Notes: generated from the letters alone by a model not told the origin. A stretch of DNA of 64,000 nucleotides from a virus (IMGVR_UViG_3300009941_000125:31540-95539); one strand, 5' to 3'. Positions 2,900 through 17,942 are shown, numbered from the stretch's first letter. Translations and numbers: made by a program.

Positions 2900-3187
2900 T
2901 CACCTCAACTTTTTCATATACTTTTCAAAATCATCTAATTCTATTCTTTTTTTTATAACCCCTTTAGGAACAACAAAGTAATCATGATGCTCTAAAGTTC
3001 TTAATGTTTCTGTCTCCTTAATCGGCATTTCAATGGAATGAGAAAGTTTAACAATCTCATCATCTTCCCAAACAACAAAACCTGCTTGACACATATGGGT
3101 TAACCCACCTTCTTCAAATCCCTTATCACCATGTTCTGTAATATCAGTCCAATAAATAATCTCGAGTCTAGGATTTTTTATAAGCAT
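2900..3187 (-). CDS. hypothetical protein
   Basis: 95-aa ORF. Confidence 0.5.
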   Translation of the reverse strand: MLIKNPRLEIIYWTDITEHGDKGFEEGGLTHMCQAGFVVWEDDEIVKLSHSIEMPIKETETLRTLEHHDYFVVPKGVIKKRIELDDFEKYMKKLR

Positions 3188-3334
3188 TTAACACCTTCAT
3201 TTTTTTTATTTTACGGAACCTTTTAGTTTTTTAAAATCAAGCTTTAACTGTTTTGAGAGAGGAACTTCTTTGGTTTTTACCTTTTTAAATGGTTTAATTT
3301 TCCATTTTTTTAAAGTTTCTTTATTTACCATAAA

Positions 3335-3547
3335 CTATTTAATCTCCTTTTTAAGAGGAGCTTTTTTTACTAACGGTGCTTCAACTTTTTTTATTGGTTG
3401 AGTTTTAACTTCTTTTACATTAGCTTTATTAGAAGCAACAGCTTCTTCTAAACTTTTGATTGCTGTATCAAGAATTCTGCGCTGATCTTTTAGTCTTTCT
3501 AAAATTCTTCCTTGTTCCATGTTAATCTTTCTCCTTTTTGATAGCAT
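3335..3547 (-). CDS. Hypothetical protein; true start probably the internal Met at about 3520.
   Basis: 70-aa ORF. AAGGAG precedes the internal ATG (MEQGRIL...), which sits just after the stop of the upstream NrdD C-terminal ORF. Confidence 0.4.
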   Translation of the reverse strand: MLSKRRKINMEQGRILERLKDQRRILDTAIKSLEEAVASNKANVKEVKTQPIKKVEAPLVKKAPLKKEIK

Positions 3548-3683
3548 AACTGCCTTTTTGTCTATCTTTTAATTCTTCTTGTTTTGAAGGAGACCAATTT
3601 TTAATTTTACTAAAATAGCCTACAATCCTACTCATTCCTTCTACATTGGTTGACCCGCAATGGGGACATTTAACTTGTTTCAT
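3522..3683 (-). CDS. nrdD: Anaerobic ribonucleotide reductase NrdD C-terminal fragment with the second zinc-ribbon CxxC and the glycyl-radical motif; a stand-alone 53-aa ORF.
   Basis: Manual translation gives MKQVKCPHCGSTNVEGMSRIVGYFSKIKNWSPSKQEELKDRQKGSYAIKKEKD with strong RBS AAGAAGGAGATAA. CPHC followed by RIVGY...N..KQEEL..R matches the NrdD C-terminus, where E. coli NrdD ends RVCGYLG...NAGKQEEVKRR. Too short for the ORF track. Confidence 0.75.
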   Translation of the reverse strand: MKQVKCPHCGSTNVEGMSRIVGYFSKIKNWSPSKQEELKDRQKGSYAIKKEKD

Positions 3684-3694
3684 TTATCTCCTTC

Positions 3695-4066
3695 TTATTT
3701 ATAATCAATAATATCTATCTGTTCATGATTCCGTGTTATCTCAATCTCGTCATTCAATTCTGTATTTATATACATATACATTCCTAAATAATCGTTATTT
3801 TTAATACTTGTTTCATCTAATATTTGACATATATTCATAAACCAAATAATAGGGGGAAATGCAATGTTAATTTGGTTGTTCTCTTTAACATCTTTTCCTT
3901 CTGGGCTCTTACAAAACTGAATTAAACACATAAATAAAAACGCTAACGTAAAACTTCCTTTTAATTCAAACTTCACTTTAACACCCCTTTTTTTAAATAG
4001 CAGAGATGGGATTCGAACCCATGACCTGTTGGGTTTTAATAAACTTATTAAATTCTTTTTGAACAT
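3695..4066 (-). CDS. Hypothetical protein; the 5' end is doubtful because it overlaps the tRNA 3' half.
   Basis: 123-aa ORF. The first 23 codons run through the tRNA 3' exon and the endonuclease 3' end, so the real start may be the internal Met near 3931. Confidence 0.3.
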   Translation of the reverse strand: MFKKNLISLLKPNRSWVRIPSLLFKKRGVKVKFELKGSFTLAFLFMCLIQFCKSPEGKDVKENNQINIAFPPIIWFMNICQILDETSIKNNDYLGMYMYINTELNDEIEITRNHEQIDIIDYK

Positions 4067-4607
4067 ATTCTTTATCGTTTCCTCTACTTATATCTTTAAT
4101 TGAATAAGGAATATACTCGCTCTTTTTTATTTCTTTAATTTTTATTCTATCTCTATTTTGAACCTGTTTTACAGAATGTGATTTTGTGATCTTTTTATAA
4201 TGCCAAGGACCGTTCCATAAAATTGCTACTTTTTTATTTAAAATAATAACGTCAGCATCCCATCCATTAAACATATTTTTATTAGTCAAAATATTATCTT
4301 TTCCAAAATGCTTGATACACAAATTTGCAAAATGAATCTCATTCTTACTTCTCTTTATATTAACTTTAGATTTTTTTAAAAATAACTCACGAGCAAATCC
4401 ATTTTTCAACCTAAAGGACATGGAACAACTAAGAGAACAGTATGTGTAATGTTTTCTTTTAGCCAAAAATTCTTTTTTACAATTAGGACAAATCTTTTTA
4501 TAACATTTACATAATTTACATTTTACTTTCTTAGGATCTGATCTTTTATTAACTTTAACTAAAATACCACAAATTATACAAGCTACAATTTTATTATTTG
4601 ATTTCAT
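3993..4607 (-). CDS. Free-standing homing endonuclease with an N-terminal Cys-rich zinc ribbon and a C-terminal Vsr/DUF559-like nuclease domain (commonly annotated as HNH-type).
   Basis: 204 aa with RBS AAGGGAG. N-terminus carries CIICG...CKLCKC...CPNC. C-terminus WDADVIILNKKVAILWNGPWH resembles the (A/V)IE(V)DG..H core of Vsr/DUF559 endonucleases. Its last 12 codons read through the tRNA 3' half. Confidence 0.6.
   Translation of the reverse strand: MKSNNKIVACIICGILVKVNKRSDPKKVKCKLCKCYKKICPNCKKEFLAKRKHYTYCSLSCSMSFRLKNGFARELFLKKSKVNIKRSKNEIHFANLCIKHFGKDNILTNKNMFNGWDADVIILNKKVAILWNGPWHYKKITKSHSVKQVQNRDRIKIKEIKKSEYIPYSIKDISRGNDKEYVQKEFNKFIKTQQVMGSNPISAI
3998..4033 (-). tRNA. tRNA(CAU) 3' half: position 38, anticodon-stem 3' strand, variable loop, T-arm and acceptor.
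   Basis: Minus strand reads C-CCAAC-AGGTC-ATGGG-TTCGAAT-CCCAT-CTCTGCT-A, with a canonical T-loop and a 5-nt AGGTC variable loop. It pairs with the 5' half at 4696..4730 in the anticodon stem (GTTGG/CCAAC) and in 6 of 7 acceptor pairs. Confidence 0.5.
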
Positions 4608-4695
4608 CTTAATTCTCCCTTAAGGAATTGTGGGGCTTGGTGTTAAGGCACCATTGAAAGAGTAATTAATTCTTTCTTAGCCCCAATTATATTTT
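4034..4695 (-). mobile_element. Insertion splitting the tRNA(CAU) gene in the anticodon loop; it carries the homing-endonuclease ORF.
   Basis: 662 bp lie between tRNA positions 36/37 and 38. They contain the endonuclease gene and an 88-nt structured leader (TGGGGCT...AGCCCCA inverted repeat). No guanosine directly precedes the 3' exon and there is no room for a group I core. Confidence 0.5.
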
Positions 4696-4730
4696 ATGAA
4701 CCAACTGAGCTGCCACTGCTCCACCCTGCG
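4696..4730 (-). tRNA. tRNA(CAU) 5' half: acceptor 5' strand, D-arm, anticodon-stem 5' strand and UUCAU of the loop.
   Basis: Minus strand reads CGCAGGG-TG-GAGC-AGTGGCA-GCTC-A-GTTGG-TTCAT, with U8, a 4-bp D-stem and a 7-nt D-loop containing GG. It begins at the nucleotide right after the TGA stop of the methyltransferase gene. Confidence 0.5.
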
Positions 4731-5354
4731 TCACTTTTTAGCTTTTAAAAATAACCATCGCTTAGTCTCTGCTAAGTCGTCAATAGAACATTTAAAATAT
4801 TTACTAACTTGTTCTATTAATGACTCTTTAGTGTAATGTCTGAAATGAGATGGGAAACAACAATTCCCATTAGGTACACTAATAAGTATTTGACCACCAT
4901 TCGCTAACACTCTATGGCATTCTTCTAACGTTCTAAATGGATCAGCTACATGCTCTAACGTTTCAGCCATAATAATAGTATCAAAAGAATAATTAGAAAA
5001 AGGTAACTCTTCTGACCATGCTTGGAATAAAGATATTTTCTTTTGAATCTCTAATGGTTCTTTATTAACGGCTTCTTTTGCTTTTTCTATACACTCTGCT
5101 ACAATATCAATTCCTACTATTTCAAAACCTTTTCTTGCGGCAAGCAATTCAACAATTCCATCAGCACATCCAATATCTAAAATCTTACCTGCTAATCTAG
5201 TTATAAACCAACTAATCCTTTTTGTTTCAATACCATTAGGATGAGCTTCTATAAACTCTTTAGCTTTGCTTTGGTATTGTGTATTAAGAGTCTCAACGAG
5301 CTCTTTATCTACAATCTCATCACTACTAAAATCTTTTTTCCAAATATGCTTCAT
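4731..5354 (-). CDS. Class I SAM-dependent methyltransferase.
   Basis: 207 aa with motif I LDIGCADG and post-I EIVGIDI; IIMAETLEHV and GGQILISVPN follow. Confidence 0.75.
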   Translation of the reverse strand: MKHIWKKDFSSDEIVDKELVETLNTQYQSKAKEFIEAHPNGIETKRISWFITRLAGKILDIGCADGIVELLAARKGFEIVGIDIVAECIEKAKEAVNKEPLEIQKKISLFQAWSEELPFSNYSFDTIIMAETLEHVADPFRTLEECHRVLANGGQILISVPNGNCCFPSHFRHYTKESLIEQVSKYFKCSIDDLAETKRWLFLKAKK

Positions 5355-5584
5355 AATAGTTCTTTTTCTGCTATCTTCATAATTGAATACTTTTTATCCC
5401 CAACTACAATTGCTGGCGGATACTGAAAATTATGAAATGTAAATTCCATTAAGCCTTCTGGTTCATCTATTGATAACCATTTGACTGTATATTTATCAGT
5501 CATTTTCTCAAGCTTCTTTCCAATCTCTTTAGCAAGCTTACATTTCTCACAACCAGCTTTAGTAAATATTAAGACGTTTTGCAT
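5351..5584 (-). CDS. Glutaredoxin/NrdH-like thioredoxin-fold protein.
   Basis: 77 aa with CxxC (CEKC) at the N-terminus of a short alpha/beta protein. It sits near nrdG and nrdD. Confidence 0.55.
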   Translation of the reverse strand: MQNVLIFTKAGCEKCKLAKEIGKKLEKMTDKYTVKWLSIDEPEGLMEFTFHNFQYPPAIVVGDKKYSIMKIAEKELL

Positions 5585-5757
5585 AATTCTTTCTCCAAAC
5601 TACTTAAACTTTTTATTGTTTTTCTATAAATAGATCTCAATTCAGGGGTCAATTCATTCATCATTAATCCAATTTCAAACTTTTCTTGTAAATACCAAAT
5701 ATCAGCTATATCAAATTCTCCATTATCAAAAGATTGAGTATACATTGTCGACTTCAC
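5569..5757 (-). CDS. hypothetical protein
   Basis: 62-aa ORF. Confidence 0.3.
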   Translation of the reverse strand: MKSTMYTQSFDNGEFDIADIWYLQEKFEIGLMMNELTPELRSIYRKTIKSLSSLEKELCKTS

Positions 5758-7172
5758 TTCCTTTTATTAACTTGTCCAACTTTACCACTTGAATATCTTC
5801 TAGGCCATTGATCTTTAACCTCTTTTTGAGTCTCTAGTCTTTCGCCCATCTGTTTTAACTTTTCTTTATCTTCTTTTGAAATCTTACCTTGTTTAATATT
5901 GTCATATAAAGATTTATCTATATCTTTTTTTATTTCAACTTTATAGCCAGCTTTCTTTAAAGCACTTTCCACTTTTTTAATATTTTCTATAGTAGGAGTA
6001 AACGTTAAATGAGAAGATCCCCCTCCCTCTCTAAAGTGAACACCTAATTTCTTTCCTAATTCATTAGGATCGGCAAATCCTCTACTATTATCATGAAAAA
6101 TTGTAGCATCATACCAACCATTATTAGCTTTCCAAAAATCGATATCCCCATAAAACCCAATCGGTTTGCCATATAAATCTCTTTTTTCTTCTACAGAAAT
6201 AATAACTGGATATAATTGTTTAGAAACTTCTTTCTTTCTTTTAACAATATTTGTTAATTTATCACTTGAGGCTCTCTCTTTTATTAATCTATGGTGCTCT
6301 TCTTCTAGTTGCTTTAGTTTCTTTTTCAAATCTTCTTTACCTGTTTTGGCAGAAGATTTACGAACAAATACAGGTATTTTTGTAAACCCTAATTCCTTTT
6401 GAGCAATAAACCTATGAATTCCATCCATAATTTCACCATTTTCATCAATTACTATACCTGGTATGTCTCTATCTTGTCCATAAGATTCCATTAAACTAGA
6501 AATTATAGTAATATCTTCATCAAGATTCTTGTAATCACCAATATTATATTCAAAATCTATCATTTCTATTGGAACAATTTTTTGTACAAACTTATCATCT
6601 TTTTTCATATCAAAAATTACATCACTTGATGCTTCTGGTTCTGATTGAATATCTTGAATTTCTTCTGCAGAAAATGTTAAAGAATTATTATCTTCATCGT
6701 TTTTAGCTTCAGAGCCAGCCCAATAAGGTTTGCCTAATTTACTAACTCTTTGGTGTCTCTTTTGAGCTTTCTCAAAGTCATCTCTTTTCTCTATAACCTC
6801 TAAACTCTCTTTGTTTATACCATAATCCTCTGCGAGGGCTCTACGAACAAACTCTGGAACATTTTTAAGATCACCATCAAAATAAAATACTGGTACCATT
6901 TCAGCTTCCAATTCTTTGAGTGCTGCGTATCTGTGATGACCATCTACAAGTCCTCCTTTATCCATAAACAAAGGTTTGATCTCTCCAGTCTCTTGAATTT
7001 CTTTCTTAATCGCGGCTACCTTGCCCGCATCTAAATCTCTATTCACCGAAAAATTAGGCTTAATGTCATCAAGCTTAGACAATCTTTCTTCTATAGTAGG
7101 GTAAAACACCCTACTATTTAAGATTTTATCCTCTAGCGGATTTGTCGATTTAGATATAACTTTTAAAGTCAT
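5754..7172 (-). CDS. Protein with tandem ParB/Srx-like nuclease domains and a HicA-like C-terminal region.
   Basis: 472 aa with two ParB N-domain motifs (GLVDGHHRYAALKEL and IMDGIHRFIAQKELG). The C-terminal GGGSSHLTFTPT...IKK resembles the HicA fold. Confidence 0.6.
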   Translation of the reverse strand: MTLKVISKSTNPLEDKILNSRVFYPTIEERLSKLDDIKPNFSVNRDLDAGKVAAIKKEIQETGEIKPLFMDKGGLVDGHHRYAALKELEAEMVPVFYFDGDLKNVPEFVRRALAEDYGINKESLEVIEKRDDFEKAQKRHQRVSKLGKPYWAGSEAKNDEDNNSLTFSAEEIQDIQSEPEASSDVIFDMKKDDKFVQKIVPIEMIDFEYNIGDYKNLDEDITIISSLMESYGQDRDIPGIVIDENGEIMDGIHRFIAQKELGFTKIPVFVRKSSAKTGKEDLKKKLKQLEEEHHRLIKERASSDKLTNIVKRKKEVSKQLYPVIISVEEKRDLYGKPIGFYGDIDFWKANNGWYDATIFHDNSRGFADPNELGKKLGVHFREGGGSSHLTFTPTIENIKKVESALKKAGYKVEIKKDIDKSLYDNIKQGKISKEDKEKLKQMGERLETQKEVKDQWPRRYSSGKVGQVNKRK

Positions 7173-7173
7173 T

Positions 7174-7527
7174 TTAGTTTACTGTTTGTACCTGTTCTTC
7201 TGATTTTTCTTTCTTAGGATTAGCCGATCTAACAGTAATTACTCTACCTTCGAAATCTTTTTCATTAGCAGCAGCAATAACTTCAGCTTCTTTTCCAAGT
7301 TCAATATCAATAAAACCAAAGCCCCTTGATCTAGCAGTCCCTTTATCTCTTATAATTCTTGTTGAATAAACTTCACAAAACTGTTCGAAAAATTTACCCA
7401 ATTTATATTCGTTAATCTTCCAAGGAATGTTTCCTACATAAACTGTATCACAAGGTTGACTGGTCTCTCCAACCTCCCCATCATAACTTCTTTCAACTTG
7501 ATCTAATTTCATTTTTTCATTTTCCAT
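7174..7527 (-). CDS. RRM-domain RNA-binding protein.
   Basis: 117 aa with RNP-2 VYVGNI and RNP-1 RGFGFIDI at canonical spacing. Confidence 0.75.
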   Translation of the reverse strand: MENEKMKLDQVERSYDGEVGETSQPCDTVYVGNIPWKINEYKLGKFFEQFCEVYSTRIIRDKGTARSRGFGFIDIELGKEAEVIAAANEKDFEGRVITVRSANPKKEKSEEQVQTVN

Positions 7528-7565
7528 TCTTTTATTTTCCCCTTTTTTTTATTTAATAACTCTCA

Positions 7566-8045
7566 TTAAATAGAGATGTTATCTTCATCGGTGGAATCAG
7601 TCTCGGTGCTATTAGGTCCCGATACGGATTCTTCTTTTTCTTCTGAAGCGACTTGATCAACCGTATCTTCAACGGGTGTATTTGTTGCTTCTTCAACTTC
7701 TTGATTTTCCTCTTCTGCTGGACTTTCTTCTTCTGTACTCTCAATCTCAACCGTTTCTTCTTCCGGCGTAATGATCTTTTCTGCTTCCTCAACATTACTT
7801 TCGTCAATATATTCAACAGCTTTTTCTTTAAACGGCTCTGGAACTTCATATTGTTCTGTAGGTTTACATTGCACACTAGTTGATACCTCCTCGACTTGTT
7901 CATCAAAACTTTCAATTGCAGTTAATAAAATTCTAACTAAAGTATCTGTAGGAAATTTTCTGATGCATTTTCTTTTACCATTCTCTTTCTTTTCCCATAA
8001 TTTTAAGAACCCTTTTGATTTGCTATAAGAAACTTCGTAACTCAT
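7566..8045 (-). CDS. Hypothetical protein with a highly acidic C-terminal tail.
   Basis: 159 aa with a basic N-terminus and an E/D-rich C-terminus. The overlapping K/R-rich 120-aa ORF at 7553..7915 in another frame is treated as an artefact. Confidence 0.45.
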   Translation of the reverse strand: MSYEVSYSKSKGFLKLWEKKENGKRKCIRKFPTDTLVRILLTAIESFDEQVEEVSTSVQCKPTEQYEVPEPFKEKAVEYIDESNVEEAEKIITPEEETVEIESTEEESPAEEENQEVEEATNTPVEDTVDQVASEEKEESVSGPNSTETDSTDEDNISI

Positions 8046-8476
8046 TCACTATCCTCCTCTTTTTCAAGTTGAATATACACTCCAATTTCTTGCTTAACTG
8101 GTTTATCCTTACTTATATCAACTATCTTTGTTGGATTATCAATTCTAATTCCATGCATAGATATTGTTTCACCAACACAACCACCAACACTATAGTGATA
8201 ATAAAAAATTTCGTTTAAATATTTTTCAATTTTATTAATCCAATTTTTAATTATCTTAGGTAGGAATAATAAAACCTCTAGACATTTAACTTTAAAATCC
8301 AACCAAATTAAACTTGCAGCATCCTCAATTGGTCGTTTTCTTTCAATTTTTTCAGATGAAATATCCTTTTCTTTTGTTTCAAATACTAAAAAATATTTAA
8401 GTGGTTTTTTATTTTCTTTTTCCCACTCATCATCTATTATAACCGCAATACCATTTTCGACATTAACTCTCATCAT
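8042..8476 (-). CDS. hypothetical protein
   Basis: 144-aa ORF. Confidence 0.45.
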   Translation of the reverse strand: MMRVNVENGIAVIIDDEWEKENKKPLKYFLVFETKEKDISSEKIERKRPIEDAASLIWLDFKVKCLEVLLFLPKIIKNWINKIEKYLNEIFYYHYSVGGCVGETISMHGIRIDNPTKIVDISKDKPVKQEIGVYIQLEKEEDSE

Positions 8477-8488
8477 GACAACTCCTCT

Positions 8489-8683
8489 TTACTTACTAAC
8501 TGTTTGTGAAAATAACAATCGGCATAATATTAATAAACCTAACGCTTCAAGAAGCGAAATTGCTCTTAATCCAAAAATACTAGGCATTAATCCATTCCAT
8601 AAAAATTGAATCGCGAAAGGAAATAGCAATAAAATAAGAACCATAAGACCTAAACCTAAAATTCCACCAATAACATCATTCAT
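8489..8683 (-). CDS. Small hydrophobic membrane protein.
   Basis: 64 aa with two predicted TM stretches. Confidence 0.35.
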   Translation of the reverse strand: MNDVIGGILGLGLMVLILLLFPFAIQFLWNGLMPSIFGLRAISLLEALGLLILCRLLFSQTVSK

Positions 8684-9257
8684 TTTCCCACTCTCCTTTA
8701 CTTGACTTTCTATACAAAATTTGATTACTTGAACCTCTAAACTTGAGATTCAGATCTTGCCTGGCTTGAACGAAGGGTCCATCTACTATTACATCCACAA
8801 TATCCTTGATGTCTTGCGGTATATCTTTGAAAAGATCGCCCGTATAAAGCCAAATCTTCTTTCCTTTTTCTTTTGCCCATTGGCTTATTGCTTTTACCGC
8901 TTGTGGTTGTAATAATGGTTCACCTCCAGATAAAATTATCCAATCTACCCAATCAATTAATCTTGTTAAATAATCTGTAATAGCTTTATAGTCTAACCAA
9001 AAACCTCTTTCCCATTGTAATTTAGCTACTTCTGGATTATGGCAACCTTTACAATGCTTATCGCAACCTTGAAACCAAATAATTGCTGCTAAGCTTTCTG
9101 CATCTTGCAATGACTCTGTAATTCCTGCTATCCTAAACATAACATTTTCTTCTGTAAAATTTTTATCTTTAGGCTCTGGAACTCTTAACTTTTGTGCGTA
9201 CTCTTTGAAAGAAACTTTCTTTGTCATTGATCGTCGTCCTCTATTAAATGTCTCCAT
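8676..9257 (-). CDS. nrdG: Anaerobic ribonucleotide reductase activating protein, a radical-SAM enzyme.
   Basis: 193 aa with WFQGCDKHCKGCHN (CxxxCxxC) and a GGEPLL glycine-rich SAM motif. Confidence 0.85.
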   Translation of the reverse strand: METFNRGRRSMTKKVSFKEYAQKLRVPEPKDKNFTEENVMFRIAGITESLQDAESLAAIIWFQGCDKHCKGCHNPEVAKLQWERGFWLDYKAITDYLTRLIDWVDWIILSGGEPLLQPQAVKAISQWAKEKGKKIWLYTGDLFKDIPQDIKDIVDVIVDGPFVQARQDLNLKFRGSSNQILYRKSSKGEWENE

Positions 9258-9502
9258 GATTCAATTTTATTGCCGTGAAAAACTTCTTCTACTTGACAAC
9301 TGATAAAATATGCTGATTCTTTTCGTAACATTTCAAAATAATCAATATATTCCTCTATAGTATCAGGAAAATCACTATAATCAATAATATCTTTATAAAT
9401 GAATAAATGCCCGCTGTACTCTGCGACATGAGATATACAAACATTATGATTAATAATGTCGCAAAAAATATCAATGTATGCATCATTTAATCTTGGTTCC
9501 AT
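9224..9502 (-). CDS. hypothetical protein
   Basis: 92-aa ORF. Confidence 0.4.
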   Translation of the reverse strand: MEPRLNDAYIDIFCDIINHNVCISHVAEYSGHLFIYKDIIDYSDFPDTIEEYIDYFEMLRKESAYFISCQVEEVFHGNKIESWRHLIEDDDQ

Positions 9503-9509
9503 ATATAAC

Positions 9510-9689
9510 TCACTTCTCTATAATTACTTCTCTTAATTGATATAAGCCATCATCTTCGTCTCTTTCGCTAAGAATCATTTTAATTTTGTAATCTTCTAAA
9601 TTAAGTTGTCTTAAAACGCCGCCATCTAAATCAACAATCCCTATTATCTTTTTATTGAAGCCTTCTTTTAATGTAAAAAAACATCTCAT
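9510..9689 (-). CDS. Small hypothetical protein.
   Basis: 59-aa ORF from manual translation (MRCFFTLKEGFNKK...); below the track cutoff. Confidence 0.3.
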   Translation of the reverse strand: MRCFFTLKEGFNKKIIGIVDLDGGVLRQLNLEDYKIKMILSERDEDDGLYQLREVIIEK

Positions 9690-9711
9690 TTTTAACTTTC
9701 TTTATATTTTT

Positions 9712-9784
9712 AGCCGAGAGAAGGACTTGAACCCTCAACCGATTGATTACAAATCAATTGCTCTTCCAATTGAGCTATCCCGGC
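9712..9784 (-). tRNA. tRNA-Thr(UGU)
   Basis: 73-nt cloverleaf on the minus strand: GCCGGGA-TA-GCTC-AATTGGAA-GAGC-A-ATTGA-TTTGTAA-TCAAT-CGGTT-GAGGG-TTCAAGT-CCTTC-TCTCGGC-T. All stems pair and the anticodon is TGT. Confidence 0.9.
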
Positions 9785-9867
9785 GTAAGATATAATAACT
9801 ATCATATTTAACACGATAGTGTGTCTGGTGTCACCCGGGTGTTGTCTGAATAACAACCTATAAGACT

Positions 9868-11850
9868 CTAAGAGTCTCTATTCCATCCTCTACTTGTCTT
9901 TTTACAATCATTACAAAAAGTAAACTCAGGACTAATTACTAATTGAGCGCACTGGGTATTATCCCATACCTTCTTTATTATATTTTCAATACCTTTAGGA
10001 TGAGGTTTTTGCTCTCCTAAAAATATATGCGTTATAGCTCCTGATTCTATTAACGGATTAAACCTTGCTTGACCCACAATCCTATCGATTATGGAAATTT
10101 CGGCGTTCGCGGCGTAATGCACAGAATTAGTATAATAAACCACACCACTATCCAAGCTACCTCTGACATAATCCTTAGCCTCCTTAAAAGCATGCAAATC
10201 AACTTTTGCTAATCTATAAGCTGCGCTTTCGGCGGGGCTTTCTTCGAGTGTAACTTTGAGTTTGTTTTCTTTTCCTAATTCTTTAGCTTTAAGATACATG
10301 GAACTAACAAGCTTTAATCCTAATTTATAAGATTCTTCGTCTTCGTGTAATTGCTTACCTGTGATTCTCTGTATACATTCATTTAATCCAATAATACCAA
10401 TAATATAAGTAGCTGCCTCTAAATCAACATAAGGTCTACCATCTTTAGCCTTCATACCAATTTGCCAAAGGGGTAATCCTTCTTCCATTAACCAACCAAT
10501 AAATCTTTTTTTCTGTAAATGAGCTTTCATAGCAATATCCATAGTTCTCATAACTTCTTTTACAGTTTTATCGTAATTTCCTTCAGCTCTATATGCAGCT
10601 TGAGGAAGATTTATTGATACATTTTGAAAGCCACAAAATCTCATTGATTCTGGATGTTCGATCATATAATTATCATCAATAACAGTTCTTAATCTACAAC
10701 ATGCAGCTAAAGTAACTTCATCTCTATCAAATACAAAATAAGGAGATCCATTCTCGGAAGCAATTTCACAAGCAAATGCAAATAATTTATATTGTTCTTT
10801 ATCTGTAAATGTTTCTGCACTTATATGAAAATCACATTTAGGAAAAGAAAAGACTCTTCCATAACAATCACCTTCTCGCCATACTTCTAACATTGCTTTT
10901 GCAAACATTTGAGCTTCTTTTTCAAAATCTCCATATGTTTCTTTTAAATACTTTCCACCAGGACCTATTGCTTTAATATTTTTAAGATAACTGGGAATAC
11001 CAGTGTGAATATTAAAATCTAAAAATAAGGTTTGCCCACCTCTACTAAAAGCATTCTGACTTGCTGAAAAAATTAAATGCTGAGCTTCTTGTTTCATTCT
11101 TTCAAAGGAAAGTCCTCGCACTAATGGTGCATAGAAAATATTAACATAACCAATTCCTAGCGCTCCTGCGTAATAAGCTTGCATAGAAGCTAGAAAAGTA
11201 TTTAAATGCCCTGTCAAAGTTCTTGCGTGACTTGCTGGCTTACTAGCCGAATTAAGATTCTCTAATTCTAAACCATATTTCTTAATATACTCCAAAGAAT
11301 GAGAACTACAATAAACTCTAGTTATATAACCTAAATCGTGTAAATGTACTTTACCTGTTAAATGAGCTTCAGCTACTTCTTTAGAAAATACTCTGCTTAA
11401 TGCATACTGCTTGAATGCTGCTTCAGAAATTGCTAAACTAACTGCTTCAGGGTTATTCGCCGAAATATTACTATTCTCAGATGTCTTACTAAAGATATAT
11501 TGTTCTAAATCATAAGTAGGGATACCTAAGACTTGTTGTTTCCTTAGCTTTCCATTTAATCCTTTTTCAAATAAAACATCATCAATAATACTACGAATTG
11601 TTCCTGTACTAATATTTTTTATTTCAGTCGCAAAGATTCTCGTTTCAACTTCAGTCGCAATAGCTCTAGCCTCTTTCATATCTAATCCAGCTTCTTCCTC
11701 TAATGATTCGATAACTTTCTTTTTATCCCAATCACTAAGCATTCCCTCAGAAAGAGAAGATACTAGTAAACTTAAATCTGTTGTGTCGTTTGAAGAAGCT
11801 TTGTTCTTCTTGAAAACTTTAATTGTCATTCTGCTCCCTTTCCAATCCAA
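9868..11850 (-). CDS. nrdD: Anaerobic (class III) ribonucleoside-triphosphate reductase; the main body lacks the glycyl-radical C-terminus.
   Basis: 660 aa with an ATP-cone-like N-terminus and a large NrdD barrel. It ends ...FTFCNDCKKTSRGWNRDS just after the first CxxC. No second CxxC or RVxGY follows in any frame downstream. Confidence 0.9.
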   Translation of the reverse strand: MDWKGSRMTIKVFKKNKASSNDTTDLSLLVSSLSEGMLSDWDKKKVIESLEEEAGLDMKEARAIATEVETRIFATEIKNISTGTIRSIIDDVLFEKGLNGKLRKQQVLGIPTYDLEQYIFSKTSENSNISANNPEAVSLAISEAAFKQYALSRVFSKEVAEAHLTGKVHLHDLGYITRVYCSSHSLEYIKKYGLELENLNSASKPASHARTLTGHLNTFLASMQAYYAGALGIGYVNIFYAPLVRGLSFERMKQEAQHLIFSASQNAFSRGGQTLFLDFNIHTGIPSYLKNIKAIGPGGKYLKETYGDFEKEAQMFAKAMLEVWREGDCYGRVFSFPKCDFHISAETFTDKEQYKLFAFACEIASENGSPYFVFDRDEVTLAACCRLRTVIDDNYMIEHPESMRFCGFQNVSINLPQAAYRAEGNYDKTVKEVMRTMDIAMKAHLQKKRFIGWLMEEGLPLWQIGMKAKDGRPYVDLEAATYIIGIIGLNECIQRITGKQLHEDEESYKLGLKLVSSMYLKAKELGKENKLKVTLEESPAESAAYRLAKVDLHAFKEAKDYVRGSLDSGVVYYTNSVHYAANAEISIIDRIVGQARFNPLIESGAITHIFLGEQKPHPKGIENIIKKVWDNTQCAQLVISPEFTFCNDCKKTSRGWNRDS

Positions 11851-12081
11851 TGTTATTGTGCTTTTTGTTATAGCAATCTTTACAAACCCAATGTCTGCTA
11901 TCTTTACTTTTCCATATTACCTTTGTAAATCTATTACAAGATGGGTTAGAACACCTATACCCATTTTCGGTTTTTATTAAATACACGTTTCTTTTCATTT
12001 CTTCTCTTTTAAATAAAAAATATTGCCGGTGTTTTAGATAATTAAATACCTAGGCCACCGGCTCACCTAATTAACTTAAAA

Positions 12082-12303
12082 CTAAGCCAATGTTGTACTC
12101 TTCCAAGCGGAACCATTATAGACAGACAAAACATTTGTACCTGGAGTGAAATACATAGAACCAGCGACTGGAGTCCCTGGAATAACGTCAGAAAGAACTA
12201 ACATTGCTTTCCCGTCAGTATCGTAATCACGAATACCTAGTGGAAGACCTTTACCAAAACCGTCATAGTAACATTGATAAGTTGTATCAACTGTTGCACC
12301 CAT
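12082..12303 (-). CDS. Hypothetical protein; Gly/Thr/Ser-rich, with a fibre-tip-like composition.
   Basis: 73-aa ORF followed by a GCCGGTG...CACCGGC hairpin plus T-run. Confidence 0.4.
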   Translation of the reverse strand: MGATVDTTYQCYYDGFGKGLPLGIRDYDTDGKAMLVLSDVIPGTPVAGSMYFTPGTNVLSVYNGSAWKSTTLA

Positions 12304-12365
12304 TTTAAACTCACCTTCCTTTATTGTTTATTACTTAACTATTAAATACTTAAACTAAATTTAAT

Positions 12366-13220
12366 TTATATTGTTGCACTAATATTATCTAAACATTTAA
12401 CTACATTTAACTTTATATCACTTTCCCAAAAACGTAATACTTTCCAACCCATAGTAGTTAAAGCTTTAGTTACTTTTTTATCCTGATTCTTTCCGAATGG
12501 ATAATTATGCCAGTAGTTACCATCTACATAAATAGCTATTTTCTTTTCAGGATTGGCTATATCAATTGAAGTAAACCTTTCTGGATACTCATCTTGAAAA
12601 CCATTCCATAAATTATTATCTTGCATTGCTTTCCGTAATAATCTATGAGGTAAGGTATTAGTTATTTTTAAAAGTTTTCCTTCAGCATGAAGCTTTATCA
12701 TTCTTTCTCTTAATTTAGCAACATCTTTTAAATTTCTTTCTTTAGTTCTTTCAGAAACCCTCATTAAATGTGGATGGTCTTTTTTTGTCATTCCTTTCCA
12801 ATATCCACCACAAAACCAAAGTCGTCCATATTTTTTTATCATCGTCTTCTGTCGCTTTACTTCGCATTCATTAATTTTTCTATCCGTTTCTCTTGTTTTA
12901 TCTTTATTCCATGCACTATGTCCTTTAATCCATAAGTTAGTACGCGATTGTCCTTTATTTGAACATTGTTTACTACAAAAAACCTTTTTACTTGAAATAC
13001 GCACAATAAAAACTTTATTACAAATTAAACATTTTCTTTTTTCTTTTAAAACCGTTTCTCTTTTATCCCAACTTAAAACTGATCTACATTTACAACAACA
13101 AGTTTTTTTATTTGAATTTGATTTCTTTTTAAATGTTTTATCACAAATTACACACTTAGAATCTTTCTCTATTATTGTACTTTTCCCTTTATTCCAAGGA
13201 ACATTTCCTTTCTTAACCAT
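12366..13220 (-). CDS. Free-standing homing endonuclease (Zn ribbons plus Vsr/DUF559-like nuclease domain); paralogue of 3993..4607.
   Basis: 284 aa with several CxxC pairs. C-terminal IAIYVDGNYWH...WKVLRFWESD matches the Vsr/DUF559 core and is organised like the 204-aa ORF. Confidence 0.6.
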   Translation of the reverse strand: MVKKGNVPWNKGKSTIIEKDSKCVICDKTFKKKSNSNKKTCCCKCRSVLSWDKRETVLKEKRKCLICNKVFIVRISSKKVFCSKQCSNKGQSRTNLWIKGHSAWNKDKTRETDRKINECEVKRQKTMIKKYGRLWFCGGYWKGMTKKDHPHLMRVSERTKERNLKDVAKLRERMIKLHAEGKLLKITNTLPHRLLRKAMQDNNLWNGFQDEYPERFTSIDIANPEKKIAIYVDGNYWHNYPFGKNQDKKVTKALTTMGWKVLRFWESDIKLNVVKCLDNISATI

Positions 13221-14835: not shown

Positions 14836-15106
14836 TTTGTTTTTGTCCTACTACTATAAATATTGCTTCATTAACATCTAAATTCAACGCTGGCAAAACT
14901 TGAATTCCTTCTATTGTAAACTCTTGACAGCTTTCTTTAGAAAAGGTACTAATTACTAAATAATCTAAAAATATATCCTTTACTCTATTAAAGAAACCTT
15001 GTCCACAAAAACAAACAATATGCGGATACTCATATCTTGTTTTTAAATCTAGAAGAGTTTTATGAAATAATTCAAAATTAACTTTATTAAGATTCTTTAC
15101 TTTCAT
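14756..15106 (-). CDS. Hypothetical protein; its 3' end overlaps the terminase start.
   Basis: 116-aa ORF with an 80-nt overlap, so the basic tail may not be translated. Confidence 0.35.
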   Translation of the reverse strand: MKVKNLNKVNFELFHKTLLDLKTRYEYPHIVCFCGQGFFNRVKDIFLDYLVISTFSKESCQEFTIEGIQVLPALNLDVNEAIFIVVGQKQNECREFYRRSPKKQRTKRVRRKNKDR

Positions 15107-15596
15107 CTTTTAACAACTCTTTAACTTTTTTTACACACTCATCAACCGACATTGTATCTGTATGAATCATTAAATCTGGGAATCTTGGTTCTTCATATGG
15201 ATCGCTTATACCTGTAAAATGGGGAATCTCTCCTGTAATTGCTTTTGCATATAAACCTTTAGGGTCTCTTCTCTTACACTCATCAATAGAACACTTAACA
15301 TAAACAATCTTTACATCTTCAACTTTTTTCTGTACTGCTTGTCTTGTTTCTTCATAGGGTGAAATGAAAGAACAAATAATAGTTTCAAAGAATGGTGAAA
15401 GTATCTTAACTAAATAAGCTGCTCTTCCAACATTAGTATCTCTTTCTTTCTTACTAAACCCAATAGGATAAAACATATTACGAATAACATCACCGTCTAA
15501 ATTAATACATGATTCACCTAAATCTTTTTGTAACGCTTTAGCAATGGTCGTTTTTCCTGAAGCGCTTAATCCAGTCATCCATATCACTTTTGCCAT
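15087..15596 (-). CDS. cysC: Adenylylsulfate (APS) kinase.
   Basis: 169 aa with P-loop WMTGLSASGKTTIA, LDGDVIR and FSKKERDTNVGR, which are the canonical CysC motifs. Confidence 0.85.
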   Translation of the reverse strand: MAKVIWMTGLSASGKTTIAKALQKDLGESCINLDGDVIRNMFYPIGFSKKERDTNVGRAAYLVKILSPFFETIICSFISPYEETRQAVQKKVEDVKIVYVKCSIDECKRRDPKGLYAKAITGEIPHFTGISDPYEEPRFPDLMIHTDTMSVDECVKKVKELLKDESKES

Positions 15597-15668
15597 CTTT
15601 TACCTCCAAAACTTTACAAGTATAAAACCCTATAATAAATGAAAGAATTATTATTAATATAATATAAA

Positions 15669-16430
15669 CTATTTGCATAAAAGAATATATAATGTATAAC
15701 TCCCTAATATAAAAGTTCCTATACCAATAGTAAATCTTAAAAATTTATCATTAATTTTTTTAACACTAAGAGCCGCTAAGGGAGTAGCACAAAGTGCCCC
15801 AATTGTTAAATAAGGAGCTAATGTCCAATCAACATTAAAATTAGTCATTAACATATAACAAATAACTCCAATTAAACAAGTCAATCCTTCTGCCCAAGTA
15901 GTAATCCCTATTGCTTGTTTAGCTTTTCCTCCAACTAGCAATTGCCCTGCCGTCATTACCGGCCCATATCCTCCTGCGCTAATTCCTTTGTTAAACGATG
16001 CCAATAGGCCAATACCAATTATTTTTTTAAAAGAATATTTAAATGTTTTGTTAAGTGTTGTTAGTACAAGAATTCCCATTGACAAAACCATTCCACTTAT
16101 ATACAATTTTACAAAAAACTTTGGAATTGATGTTGCTATAAATACAGCTGCTATTGTTCCAATAATTCCACATATTCCCAAAATAGTAGCTAACCTTAAA
16201 TCTTCTTTATCTATATTTCCTACTTTATGATGAAAAAAACCTCCAATTAAACCTGTACACAATTCAGAAACTAATATAGCAGGAACTATTTGTATGACAC
16301 TAAATCCCATTAATAAAAAAATTGGAGCTAAAACTGTTCCATATCCCATTCCTAATGTCGAATCCATATATTCCATTACAAAAGCCCATGCTACTAAAAC
16401 TAATCCTAAACCTAAAGCTAATTCAAACAC
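15669..16430 (-). CDS. TauE/SafE (DUF81) family anion permease.
   Basis: 253 aa and polytopic, with an internally repeated 4-TM architecture and Gly-rich helices typical of sulfite/sulfonate exporter-type permeases. Confidence 0.6.
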   Translation of the reverse strand: MFELALGLGLVLVAWAFVMEYMDSTLGMGYGTVLAPIFLLMGFSVIQIVPAILVSELCTGLIGGFFHHKVGNIDKEDLRLATILGICGIIGTIAAVFIATSIPKFFVKLYISGMVLSMGILVLTTLNKTFKYSFKKIIGIGLLASFNKGISAGGYGPVMTAGQLLVGGKAKQAIGITTWAEGLTCLIGVICYMLMTNFNVDWTLAPYLTIGALCATPLAALSVKKINDKFLRFTIGIGTFILGSYTLYILLCK

Positions 16431-16450
16431 TACTCCTCCTATCTATTTCC

Positions 16451-16645
16451 TTAAACTTTTCTTCTTGGCATTCTGCCTACGGGACCTCTTCCTCTGCCTA
16501 CTCCTAAACCTCTACCATTACCGCCACTTCTAATTTTAGCTCCAGGACATTCAGTTGAATTTCCTTTAGCATCAACACAATTTCCTAATCCTCTTCCTGT
16601 TAAAGGGCCCTTTCCGTCTGGACCTGTTCCATTAAATCTTGGCAT
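16451..16645 (-). CDS. Small Gly/Arg-rich protein of the MPRxxGTGPxGxGPxTGRG type.
   Basis: 64 aa. The N-terminal pattern resembles a conserved uncharacterised small-protein family of anaerobes. Confidence 0.4.
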   Translation of the reverse strand: MPRFNGTGPDGKGPLTGRGLGNCVDAKGNSTECPGAKIRSGGNGRGLGVGRGRGPVGRMPRRKV

Positions 16646-16823
16646 TTTTCTCCCCCTTTCTACACTTTATTATTTTTTCAACTACATCTTTTAAACATGC
16701 TGGAACTTGATTTAATTTTCTATGAAAAGCAATGCAATCACAGCAAATTCCTTTTTTATCACACTCTATTAAACAATTACATTTACTTAAATTTCTTTCA
16801 TAATTCTTACACTTGTTTGTCAT
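16632..16823 (-). CDS. Small Cys-rich protein.
   Basis: 63 aa with about 10 Cys in CxC/CC arrangements. Confidence 0.35.
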   Translation of the reverse strand: MTNKCKNYERNLSKCNCLIECDKKGICCDCIAFHRKLNQVPACLKDVVEKIIKCRKGEKNAKI

Positions 16824-17202
16824 TTAATTTTTCTCGTATCTTAGTTGCTGAAATAGACTCTGTTTCTGCATCTAGTTTAATCTTTTCTGTTGACCAGCCA
16901 ACTTTTCTACCATGGACTACTTTTAAAATATTAGGTAAAAGAATTACCTTAACTCTGTTTTCTTTAATCTCTTTTTCAAAAGCTTTTGCAATCATTACAG
17001 TCCTATCGGAATAATTATGAGGATTATTATCTTTTCCATCTGAAGCTCTTAATCCAATACAAATATTATCTCCTCTATCTAAAACTGTCCTCATTAACTT
17101 AATATGTCCTTCATGTAATGGTTGATAACGACCAATAAATAAAGACCATTCCTTTTCATCAGGTTCATTCAATTCTAACATCATTAATAATTTGTCATCC
17201 AT
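16807..17202 (-). CDS. Cytidylyltransferase-fold nucleotidyltransferase (TagD/PPAT/NMNAT-like).
   Basis: 131 aa with FIGRYQPLHEGHIKLM, which carries the (H/T)xGH signature, and a size typical of glycerol-3-phosphate cytidylyltransferase-like enzymes. Confidence 0.6.
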   Translation of the reverse strand: MDDKLLMMLELNEPDEKEWSLFIGRYQPLHEGHIKLMRTVLDRGDNICIGLRASDGKDNNPHNYSDRTVMIAKAFEKEIKENRVKVILLPNILKVVHGRKVGWSTEKIKLDAETESISATKIREKLNDKQV

Positions 17203-17207
17203 TTACT

Positions 17208-17942
17208 TCACTCCTCATATTTTAATTCTTTTAGTAAATCTATAAACTTTGGTTCTGTTAAACACTCCGCTAAATATTCTTTATTAAAATCATCTAGCTT
17301 CTTTTTGTCTTTCCATTTATATACTGAATTAGCATGTAATGGTTGAACTACTCCATTATATGATAAATCTTTTCTATGGGTTGCATATCTAAACCAATTC
17401 TTTAATTCATCAACAAAATCTTCTTCAATGTGCTCACAAATTTTCTTAACAGTAGACTCATAATTTAAAATTAAATCTTCATATTTAATAGTTAACATTG
17501 TAGGATGGTCTTTATACTCTAATCCATTCCTTACATGTCCTACCCATCTACCCCATTTAGTATAAGGTCTATGATAGGGAACTCTTGGATGAATTGATGT
17601 AACTACATCTCTACCGTCTCTGATAATATGAATTAACTTTAAATTATTCTCGAACTGCTCAAGTATTTCAGGAATATAAGCCACATTGTTTGGAGTCTTT
17701 TCAAGCCAACGTACAGCATTAGGTTTCTTTTTAATCTCTGCCTTACGCTCATTAAGTCTATCCTCATAGTCTTTCTTCATTGTTGTAAAGTTCTGATTCT
17801 TAGCGCAATAGTAAGGAACCCAAACCTCTTTCGGTATAGCAAATATCTTTGGATGAGCAGATAAAATAGAAGATAAAAGAGTAGTCCCTGATCGTTGACA
17901 CCCCATTAATATAATAGGACATTTTTTCCACTCTTTTACCAT
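17208..17942 (-). CDS. PAPS-dependent sulfotransferase.
   Basis: 244 aa with the 5'-PSB motif PIILMGCQRSGTTLL and the 3'-PB motif RDGRDVVTS. Confidence 0.8.
   Translation of the reverse strand: MVKEWKKCPIILMGCQRSGTTLLSSILSAHPKIFAIPKEVWVPYYCAKNQNFTTMKKDYEDRLNERKAEIKKKPNAVRWLEKTPNNVAYIPEILEQFENNLKLIHIIRDGRDVVTSIHPRVPYHRPYTKWGRWVGHVRNGLEYKDHPTMLTIKYEDLILNYESTVKKICEHIEEDFVDELKNWFRYATHRKDLSYNGVVQPLHANSVYKWKDKKKLDDFNKEYLAECLTEPKFIDLLKELKYEE

Follow-up and report, generated by a model that had tools for sequence, protein, structure and literature searches.

The anaerobic (class III) ribonucleotide reductase NrdD, an oxygen-sensitive enzyme that supplies DNA precursors, is specified by two genes in the large phage whose DNA was analysed here (the window, a stretch of 64 kb), the break lying between the cysteine pairs of the zinc ribbon. 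With the chain interrupted within this ribbon, the predicted radical glycine resides on a separate 53-residue polypeptide encoded 6.2 kb away. The two products probably constitute a two-subunit enzyme, in which they would associate non-covalently and most likely share a Zn(Cys)4 site; the split itself would be old, acquired by the phage and scattered later. The relevant features, from the body gene to the tail gene, are the following:

9868..11829 (-): nrdD body, putative large subunit, 653 aa (Pfam NRDD, TIGR02487, AF2/Foldseek)
9904..9915 (-): first CxxC knuckle, C646-N-D-C649 in the 660-aa numbering (read directly)
9712..9784 (-): tRNA-Thr(TGT), directly downstream of the body, not part of the enzyme (ARAGORN and Rfam, 67.7 bits)
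8676..9257 (-): nrdG, radical-SAM activase with the CxxxCxxC motif CDKHCKGC (Pfam Fer4_12, Radical_SAM)
5351..5584 (-): glutaredoxin/NrdH-like redoxin with CEKC (weak Pfam Glutaredoxin and GrxA matches)
3998..4730 (-): interrupted tRNA-Met(CAT), 0.3 kb upstream of the tail (ARAGORN with intron option, T-arm match)
3687..3693 (-): Shine-Dalgarno-like AAGGAGA, 3-4 nt upstream of the tail ATG (read directly)
3522..3683 (-): nrdD tail, putative small subunit, 53 aa (Pfam NRDD, TIGR02487)
3657..3668 (-): second CxxC knuckle, C6-P-H-C9 of the tail (read directly)
3615..3629 (-): glycyl-radical motif R19-I-V-G22-Y23 of the tail (read directly)
3618..3620 (-): Gly22 of the tail, predicted radical site, part of RIVGY

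The two pieces cover two independent HMMs in a complementary, non-overlapping manner. In a profile search, body residues 125-652 match positions 1-518 of the 562 positions of PF13597 (NRDD; E 2.2e-113, 380 bits with a cut-off of 26.2), and the tail matches positions 522-561 (E 8.8e-12, 44.9 bits, above the cut-off); of the 581 positions of TIGR02487, the body covers 2-537 (367.5 bits, exceeding the curated cut-off of 326.35) and the tail 541-580. Coverage is contiguous except for three profile positions, and this alignment, which an earlier note made from the sequence alone had proposed as a check, bears out its reading of NrdD as two genes separated between the Cys pairs; both reading frames are found on the minus strand where that note had placed them. 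A tblastn search of the window with the 65-residue C-terminus of an unsplit homologue yielded exactly two matches, 9933..9886 and 3668..3540, and no second copy of either piece was detected by tblastn in the 64 kb. The RxxGY glycyl-radical motif is absent from the body, and neither the profiles nor tblastn revealed a glycyl-radical domain there, an objection that had been anticipated.

The N-terminus of the body is ATP-cone-like but degenerate, and the protein further contains the catalytic barrel, an ACCR finger loop and the first zinc knuckle; most relatives additionally possess an N-terminal zinc ribbon and a first ATP-cone, both of which are missing here. Its likely start is the ATG at 11829, which is preceded by AAAGGGAG and agrees with a homologue (P0001) and with the gene calls of other assemblies; the alternative TTG at 11850 gives the 660 residues proposed previously, a reading of which the ORF stands but the start probably does not. 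The C-terminus reads ...SPEFTFCNDCKKTSRGWNRDS and the stop codon follows 11 residues past the first CxxC. C174, C377/C378, both Cys pairs and the R, V, G and Y of the radical loop are invariant with respect to unsplit homologues; the columns of the first CxxC are so in the alignment with these proteins, as are the two cysteines of the finger loop (...TLAACCRLRT...) in alignment A2. NrdD finger loops fall into the motif classes xGCR and xCCR (PMC9669993), and the ACCR of the body, which lacks an upstream Met, fits the thiol-redoxin-dependent type of that study.

The tail contains the second CxxC knuckle, the glycyl-radical loop and the C-terminal helix NWSPSKQEELKDR. It is of the NrdD type: only NRDD and generic zinc ribbons were matched, and no Gly_radical/PFL-type (PF01228) match was obtained at E up to 0.01, which disposes of the suspicion that this small ORF is PFL/GrcA-like. 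C6, P7, H8 and C9 are invariant across 11 stand-alone tails, as are the R, V, G and Y of the radical loop in alignments A1 and A2; RIVGY aligns to RITGY in P. copri NrdD and to RIVGY in T. maritima NrdD. The ribosome-binding site is good (AAGGAG, 4 nt before the ATG), and a protein 100% identical to the tail (P0121) is present on several contigs. Counted over both pieces, the Cys pairs are spaced by 11 + 5 = 16 residues, the value of about 16 given before, and by 10 in the closest unsplit homologues. All four zinc-ribbon cysteines are present and conserved, two per polypeptide. As every truncated body keeps its CxxC and the C-P-H-C is invariant in the tails, conservation of both half-sites points to a zinc ion that may bridge the two chains in trans.

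Joined end to end, body and tail were modelled by AF2 in the NrdD fold, a ten-stranded barrel (pLDDT 76, pTM 0.77; tail 79-88, junction 65), and all of the top 36 PDB matches of this model in Foldseek are NrdD (best E 7e-26); the input, an artificial fusion with an alignment of fused homologues, biases the model towards the canonical fold. Compared with a related phage-like contig (L001), the body shows a dN of 0.27 and a dS of 2.05, and the tails, although their dS is saturated, are still 65-74% identical in amino acids.

The split is not, as might have been supposed, a peculiarity of this phage: 19 of the 120 closest NrdD homologues end 7-30 residues past the first CxxC, all 19 keeping one CxxC, and the same break occurs in six distinct archaeal contexts. 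In these, the body gene is followed by a tail gene for 48-72 aa, a Thioredoxin_3 (thioredoxin-like) gene and nrdG, body and tail overlapping by 8 nt at one extreme and lying 48 nt apart at the other; the two ORFs are separate and occupy different frames, every tail has a start codon of its own, and a ribosome-binding site was read in one of them (L002). The NrdD tree, built by neighbour-joining only and with arbitrary rooting, clusters the truncated homologues with the body from the window; nested inside this split group are two fused proteins with long linkers (P0059 and P0117), which look like secondary re-fusions. In a search with a tail profile, the distinct clusters of stand-alone tails numbered at least 100. 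Among the best 150 representative clusters, 109 are at most 130 aa long; of these, 102 begin with Met and the CxxC is retained in 90, and since 19 lack it, a shared zinc site is not universal. Stand-alone tails also lie away from any NrdD body, on two phage-like contigs (L010, L022) and on Heimdall/Promethearchaeati contigs.

Wherever a source is named, as for few members, or context markers are seen, the split clade appears to be archaeal (Woesearchaeota, unclassified archaea). The split seems to have been inherited from an NrdD clade with adjacent, often overlapping body and tail genes, rather than to have originated in this phage. The split is common in archaeal genomes yet apparently undescribed: searches of the open-access full-text literature yielded no published description, in keeping with the earlier note, which knew of no such class III enzyme.

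Only the 6.2-kb separation is unusual in the phage arrangement. The tail lies downstream of the body across a gap of 6,184 nt, and body, nrdG, the glutaredoxin-like gene and tail are dispersed over 8.3 kb amid 12 protein genes and 2 tRNA genes; the intervening features described before (nrdG, the glutaredoxin-like gene, tRNA-Thr and an interrupted tRNA-Met with an endonuclease-like ORF) were all recovered. The best NCBIfam match of the nrdG product is TIGR02491 NrdG (E 3.9e-27, under the curated cut-off), and the redoxin is 38-39% identical to the Thioredoxin_3-type genes located between tail and nrdG in the archaeal operons. The insert of tRNA-Met(CAT) measures 661 nt (4033..4693) and carries the 204-aa endonuclease-like ORF (3993..4607), and it gave no match to an Rfam intron family; a further endonuclease-like ORF is located at 12366..13220, and RtcB is also encoded in the window. 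A homing endonuclease or the intervening genes as the cause of the split were considered and rejected, the break being identical in the six archaeal contexts, where no endonuclease lies between the pieces. With 12 protein genes in the gap, co-expression of body and tail is not guaranteed.

The complete set of parts could operate in the following manner: The catalytic barrel would come from the 653-aa body, together with the ACCR finger loop and the first of the CxxC knuckles; the second knuckle, the C-terminal helix and the RIVGY loop bearing the radical Gly22 would come from the 53-aa tail. Both chains may associate non-covalently, most likely clamped by Zn(Cys)4 with two cysteines from each. 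NrdG would place the radical on the small chain, acting on either the free or the docked peptide. The glutaredoxin-like protein is the probable reductant, since the methionine associated with formate use is absent from the finger loop, and would re-reduce the active site. The split presumably had a single origin in an NrdD clade, archaeal where the source can be told, with the tail gene placed right after the body gene and often overlapping it. The phage lineage may have acquired this split form, and later insertions and rearrangements would have scattered body, nrdG, redoxin and tail.

The alternative that deserves most attention, although it is unlikely, is that the tail serves as a GrcA/YfiD-like spare part recharging an oxygen-damaged NrdD of phage or host, the separate locus providing separate regulation. 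For PFL and GrcA such a principle is established (PMC8683613), a 53-aa peptide is cheap to replace, and the tails without a nearby body on phage-like and Heimdall/Promethearchaeati contigs are compatible with such a role. However, a glycyl-radical domain is lacking in the phage body itself, so that the tail must be at least the primary subunit; that body is the sole NrdD of the window, where no full-length partner exists. Moreover, the tail is not similar to the PFL-type Gly_radical domain, and six archaeal contexts show translational coupling of tail and body, as expected of a stoichiometric subunit. Less probable still is a decaying, non-functional nrdD with the mini-ORF as a leftover: the pieces are unlinked and the body has lost its N-terminal zinc ribbon and first ATP-cone, but both ORFs are intact with good ribosome-binding sites, the catalytic and metal-binding residues are all conserved, nrdG and the redoxin are retained, dN/dS with respect to the phage relative is about 0.13, and the truncation point has been kept constant across a clade diverged to about 60% identity.

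That the pieces are joined into a single-chain NrdD by intron splicing, trans-splicing, a split intein or frameshift/readthrough is very improbable. Introns are known in phage nrdD, e.g. in T4 and Lactococcus phage 949 (PMC3653736), and the window has RtcB and an interrupted tRNA; against this, a search of 3000..12500 at E up to 1 gave no group I/II intron or other Rfam family, the gap contains 12 protein genes and 2 tRNAs, and the archaeal pieces lie in different frames with separate tail start codons. As only 11 residues follow the CxxC of the body and 5 precede that of the tail, intein halves would have no space. An assembly or sequencing artefact, finally, can practically be dismissed. The source is metagenomic and a short contig (L004) ceases to agree 185 nt downstream of the tail, but a 46.5-kb Logan contig from another run (SRR24667915) is 100% identical over the 21,829 nt (21.8 kb) that were read, body, gap and tail included; JGI 3300009860 contigs are 100% identical, contigs L004-L006 (JGI 3300009484, JGI 3300009558, SRR24667948) are 99.9% identical, and the exact body protein was recovered in two other assemblies. 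As assemblies of other samples are identical across the pieces and the 6.2-kb gap, the assembly error envisaged in the earlier note is contradicted, and the truncation point is common to 19 homologues from unrelated samples. The two-subunit enzyme thus remains the preferred reading.

Single-chain NrdDs (phage T4, E. coli, T. maritima, P. copri, S. thermophilus) belong to the same family as the phage pair by two HMMs and fold, and have in common with it the NrdG activase, the RxxGY loop and the cysteines of both finger loop and zinc ribbon. In the characterised enzymes, barrel and radical domain reside on one polypeptide, whereas the phage distributes them over two and lacks the N-terminal zinc ribbon and first ATP-cone. 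GrcA/YfiD and T4 Y06I are autonomous glycyl-radical "spare parts" for pyruvate formate-lyase. GrcA/YfiD resembles the phage tail in being a small free-standing glycyl-radical-loop protein with a large barrel partner (PMC8683613). GrcA, however, duplicates the C-terminal part of a PFL whose own radical domain is still present, and it comes into play only once oxygen has done damage, whereas the phage body has no radical domain and the tail is NrdD-type and brings half a zinc site.

Other RNRs in two pieces are known. The class II NrdJa/NrdJb of Pseudomonas aeruginosa consists of two polypeptides, both needed, with a zinc-finger-like module in the small C-terminal piece, but the break point is another, and NrdJb carries redox-shuttle cysteines, not the radical cofactor. 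The catalytic subunit NrdA-a/NrdA-b of Aeromonas phage Aeh1 is likewise made from two genes and, according to PMC3653736, functional without splicing. In the phage studied here an endonuclease-like gene lies near the tail; the Aeh1 split was made by insertion of the mobE homing endonuclease, in contrast to that of nrdD, which archaeal genomes share without an endonuclease. Among phage RNR genes, nrdD accounts for the largest number of reported splits, 6 of 16 cases (PMC3653736). T4 sunY/nrdD and Lactococcus phage 949 contain introns and are restored by RNA splicing, and phage phiAS4 shows an unexplained local fragmentation; none of these is reported as a conserved zinc-ribbon break with a stand-alone radical peptide.

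Close counterparts are the archaeal body-and-tail operons (Woesearchaeota and others; GCA_018221175.1, GCA_040960625.1), known as database sequences only, in which the tail is annotated as "hypothetical protein" or not called. They have the break point of the phage, a body ending in RG[YW]xR, a tail with C-P-H-C...SR[IV]VGY and the same partner genes (Trx-like, nrdG), at 59-64% identity for the body and 62-77% for the tail. The archaeal operons are compact, with the tail after or overlapping the body, whereas the phage genes lie scattered and in another order (body, nrdG, redoxin, tail). This dispersal is what distinguishes the phage, the split itself being common in archaeal genomes.

The window encodes NrdD, the anaerobic ribonucleotide reductase (RNR), in two pieces, a large body and a small tail, with the break falling between the two cysteine pairs of the C-terminal zinc ribbon:

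9868..11850 (-): nrdD body ORF, counted from its upstream start (probable start ATG 11829, giving 653 aa); PF13597 and TIGR02487
3522..3683 (-): nrdD tail ORF, 53 aa, MKQVKCPHCGSTNVEGMSRIVGYFSKIKNWSPSKQEELKDRQKGSYAIKKEKD

The two ORFs cover the family profiles in a complementary manner. Body residues 125-652 align to positions 1-518 of 562 in PF13597 (E 2.2e-113) and the tail to positions 522-561 (E 8.8e-12); in TIGR02487, the body covers positions 2-537 of 581 with 367.5 bits, exceeding the curated cut-off, and the tail positions 541-580. The body terminates in ...SPEFTFCNDCKKTSRGWNRDS*, its stop lying 11 residues past the first CxxC of the ribbon, and the ATG of the tail has AAGGAG 4 nt upstream. 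When the last 65 aa of an unsplit homologue were compared with the 64-kb window, exactly two matches were returned, to the body end (9933..9886) and to the tail (3668..3540), and no second copy of either. In the conceptual join, 16 residues separate the Cys pairs, compared to 10 in the closest unsplit homologues. Translation of the body probably starts at ATG 11829, which is preferred since it agrees with the closest homologue and with gene calls on other assemblies; the stretch upstream of this codon in the body gene is AAAGGGAG. The earlier note had claimed, from the sequence alone, an nrdD consisting of two genes broken between the Cys pairs: the complementary profile coverage and the two-match split of the 65-aa query bear this out, the tail is of NrdD rather than PFL/GrcA type, as no Gly_radical match was returned for it in the profile search, and the note's description of pieces, coordinates and intervening genes proved accurate in every particular by ORF reading, profiles and tRNA search.

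Every gene in the window lies on the minus strand (G+C ~30%), and the genes for a terminase large subunit-like protein, a DnaE-type DNA polymerase III alpha, DnaB helicase and RtcB assign the window to a large tailed phage. The gap of 6,184 nt between body and tail contains:

9712..9784 (-): tRNA-Thr(TGT)
8676..9257: nrdG, the radical-SAM activase of NrdD
7174..7527 (-): RRM_1 RNA-recognition-motif protein, 117 aa
5754..7172 (-): 472-aa protein with weak ParB_N-like similarity
5351..5584 (-): glutaredoxin-like gene (redoxin)
elsewhere in the gap: SAM methyltransferase
elsewhere in the gap: several small ORFs
3998..4730 (-): interrupted tRNA-Met(CAT), with a 661-nt insert (4033..4693) after the anticodon loop

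Further features lie upstream of the body:

12366..13220 (-): DUF559/Vsr-like endonuclease gene, 284 aa, with two small ORFs between the terminase-like gene and the body
15087..17942, 24059..25174 and 47561..48661 (-): sulfation/glycan-modification set

The RRM protein is an unusual gene for a phage. The tRNA-Met(CAT) carries a C1:U72 mismatch, and a 204-aa endonuclease-like ORF in its insert extends 35 nt into the 3' exon; no Rfam match to a group I or II intron was obtained at the insert. RtcB, an RNA ligase, is also encoded by this phage (30283..31482, -). In a related phage-like contig (L001), the homologue of the terminase-like gene directly adjoins the nrdD body without an intervening DUF559/Vsr-like gene, suggesting that a mobile insertion took place recently upstream of the window's body. 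A candidate relationship of the window's two endonuclease-like ORFs with the one in a viral contig (L010), as paralogues targeting nrdD, was discarded as BLASTP similarity was not significant (E 1.4, 0.013). The sulfation/glycan set comprises APS kinase, a TauE-like exporter, sulfotransferase, a cytidylyltransferase-like gene, UDP-GlcNAc 2-epimerase and UDP-galactopyranose mutase, and glycosyltransferases lie just past the window start, as seen in L003. Promoter and terminator counts were not above those in shuffled sequence.

An assembly error whose correction would fuse the pieces is contradicted by independent assemblies. A 46.5-kb Logan contig (SRR24667915) carries the identical 653-aa body and, arranged as in the window, the tail; this body is likewise present on a JGI contig (3300009860). 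The identity to the window is 100% over 21.8 kb and 14.0 kb, respectively. The tail and its flanks recur on another contig of JGI 3300009860 (100% identical) and in JGI 3300009558 and SRR24667948 (99.9%), and the tail is also present on a contig of at least 113 kb. At 99.9-100% identity, these assemblies hold no variation usable for population-level selection. Joining of the pieces during expression fares no better: Rfam searches of the whole window at the gathering threshold and of 3000..12500 at E values as high as 1 returned tRNA matches only, speaking against an intron; the termini of body and tail are too short for the halves of a split intein; and a 6 kb gap cannot be bridged by frameshifting. 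A 4.4-kb JGI 3300009484 contig (L004) is 99.9% identical to the segment comprising the endonuclease, a 93-aa ORF and the tail (window 3337..4516) and turns to unrelated genes (C2185-like, GCV_T, DUF6016) ~185 nt downstream of the tail; chimeric assembly or movement of the tail segment between contexts could account for this.

The nearest NrdD homologues of the body (60-66% identity, mostly ~800 aa) stem from bacterial and archaeal genomes assembled from metagenomes. Among 50,697 phage records, tblastn yielded only unsplit matches of at most 30% identity and no close deposited relative. Among the 120 best homologues, 19 stop 7-30 residues past the first CxxC, without a second CxxC or a radical motif, sharing the ending ...SPEFTxCxDC....G[YWF]xR; two carry the label Woesearchaeota and one 'archaeon'. 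All 19 cluster with the body of the window in a neighbour-joining tree, where the sister of this body is P0001, encoded by a syntenic phage-like contig. Two fused proteins, P0059 and P0117, are nested inside this truncated group, and their Cys-pair linkers (14 and 26 residues, compared to 10 in ordinary unsplit homologues) make them look like secondary re-fusions.

Six distinct cellular contexts of truncated bodies were examined (L002, L007, L021, L023, L024 and L025/L026), and in all six a tail ORF of 48-72 aa lies directly 3' of the body, the junction ranging from an 8-nt overlap to a 48-nt spacer. The frame of the tail differs from that of the body in L002 and L007, the two checked, and the L002 tail has its own RBS and ATG. 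After the tail follow a Thioredoxin_3-type gene and nrdG, with a dUTPase gene between them in one context. Clear archaeal markers (archaeal-type ribosomal proteins, PriS, RFC, ELP3, NFACT) are present in L002, L021, L023 and L024; no domain-specific marker genes were seen in L007 and L025/L026. The archaeal order is body, tail, redoxin and nrdG in ~4 kb, compared to body, nrdG, redoxin and tail over 8.3 kb in the phage. In L001, tail and nrdG are absent from the 2.9 kb between the body and the contig end; a 53-aa ORF located there was examined and is not a tail.

The tails extend beyond these operons. A profile built from 11 stand-alone tails and searched against 1.84 billion representative proteins gave 134 matches with E values not above 1e-10. 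Among the 150 best matches, 109 are at most 130 aa long, 102 of these starting with Met and 90 carrying a CxxC just upstream of the radical motif. Stand-alone variants of ~100-119 aa have an unrelated N-terminus and lack the CxxC, such as the one in L010 (9573..9875), which lies beside an endonuclease-like gene and has no body in the 9.7 kb upstream of it; fusions of a tail to a thioredoxin-like domain also exist (variant radical-domain forms: L010 9573..9875; P0228, P0240, P0258, P0259, P0269, P0282; P0179, P0209; L017). In Heimdall/Promethearchaeati MAG contigs (L011, L012, L013, L015), stand-alone NrdD tails of ~75 aa sit among Roadblock/LC7 and Rag/Arf-like GTPase genes, with no NrdD body within 6 kb on either side. 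Scanning IMG/VR returned no match with the body and three loci with the tail, two fused and one a stand-alone variant.

Together, the truncated homologues, their cellular contexts and the stand-alone tails argue that the zinc-ribbon break is an old, successful gene architecture and not an invention of the phage; what is distinctive in the phage is the dispersal of the operon. The split sought in related genomes was found, in 19 of 120 homologues; body and tail adjoin in all six cellular contexts, and it is the wide separation that is unusual. The earlier note's observation is confirmed and its interpretation supported. The frequency of the split among archaeal genomes makes it less singular than that note thought and, equally, broader in significance. 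Separately from the split, ten full-length NrdD homologues (P0031, P0041, P0053, P0065, P0073, P0079, P0088, P0098, P0110, P0119) keep both CxxC pairs and have RRL[AV]SH or similar instead of RIVGY, so that they lack the radical glycine; the labels of several are Scalindua, Planctomycetota or Brocadiales. P0054, P0070, P0078 and P0102 form a second set without the radical motif. A Pacearchaeota NrdD has a redoxin domain fused at its C-terminus.

By sequence and fold, body and tail belong to the NrdD family, but they lack the single-polypeptide feature of all characterised members. Alignment of the joined product with 37 fused homologues showed C174 (the beta-A cysteine candidate), the finger-loop C377/C378, the Cys pairs C639/C642 in the body and C659/C662 in the tail, and R672, V674, G675 and Y676 of the radical loop to be invariant. 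Body and L001 differ by dN 0.27 and dS 2.05; the tails share 65-74% amino-acid identity at saturated synonymous sites, so that dN/dS is qualitative only. AF2 modelling of the end-to-end joined sequence, an artificial fusion supplied with the fused-homologue alignment, gave an NrdD fold (pLDDT 76, pTM 0.77; junction 65, tail 79-88) whose top 36 PDB matches are all NrdDs, lending weak support to this fold for the joined pieces. Within the split clade, every truncated body has the CxxC, and C-P-H-C is invariant across the tail alignment. Two cysteines alone are insufficient for a structural zinc site; the simplest reading of these half-sites is thus a predicted inter-chain Zn(Cys)4 clamp. Body and P0001 are without the N-terminal zinc ribbon and first ATP-cone found in most ~800-aa homologues, and the ATP-cone match that the N-terminal ~110 residues of the body still give is sub-threshold (E 0.002), so that regulation of activity by dATP/ATP may have been lost. 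According to one study, the zinc finger presumably stabilises the radical loop in single-chain NrdD, and a finger-loop methionine is tied to formate use (PMC9669993). The finger loop of the body is ACCR, a double cysteine without this methionine, which, together with the conserved redoxin gene, points to a thiol-based re-reduction of the active site. By homology, the enzyme could operate in the following manner: body and tail would associate via the shared zinc site and the tail helix; NrdG would then install the radical on Gly22 of the tail; the radical would move to the finger-loop cysteine; and the redoxin would recycle the active site.

In glycyl-radical activation, a buried loop must swing out to the activase, a step not easily studied. 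Were the radical loop carried by its own 50-aa peptide, a small, synthesisable substrate would permit direct tests that address separately how the activase recognises the loop, how the radical is installed, how the peptide docks, and how oxygen damage arises and is repaired. A bolder reading, to which we give rather little credence, is that the stand-alone tail serves as a diffusible, replaceable radical cartridge: NrdG would activate the free 6-kDa peptide, which would dock in the empty barrel via the shared zinc site and be swapped after oxygen cleavage at the glycine. If so, the 650-aa body would never be lost to oxygen damage; with its gene unlinked, as in this phage, other phage-like contigs and Heimdall-group archaea, the cartridge could be produced on a schedule of its own and might even load non-cognate (host) bodies; and split NrdD would be the first glycyl-radical enzyme to consist of two obligate chains, one of them an exchangeable cofactor subunit. 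For phage biology, the case illustrates that a multi-part enzyme can stay functional-looking although its genes are scattered.

To our knowledge, radical glycine and barrel reside on one chain in every biochemically studied glycyl-radical enzyme. In open-access papers and preprints, including two large RNR phylogeny/extension analyses and a 2026 glycyl-radical enzyme review, no NrdD broken at the zinc ribbon was found described, in agreement with the earlier note's statement that no class III RNR split at this point is on record; the split is apparently undescribed, but not peculiar to this phage. Annotation may conceal it: split-clade bodies seem complete to gene callers, and tails are labelled hypothetical (P0124 is a 'hypothetical protein' at NCBI) or missed, as in L025, where the tail is present though uncalled by annotators. 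Tails would likewise stay hidden in a large RNR phylogeny that discarded sequences <400 aa (PMC9531940). The nearest functional analogue is GrcA/YfiD, likewise a free glycyl-radical peptide, which differs in copying the C-terminus of an intact PFL and in belonging to another domain family. The Aeh1 NrdA gene is split by a mobE insertion, and the phage nrdD cases on record are intron-interrupted or locally fragmented genes (PMC3653736), both unlike the present split. NrdJa/NrdJb of P. aeruginosa, called the only split RNR in free-living organisms by specialists in 2015, differs in that the small NrdJ piece bears the redox cysteines; the split NrdD clade would be a second, widespread split RNR in free-living organisms, in a class other than that of NrdJ.
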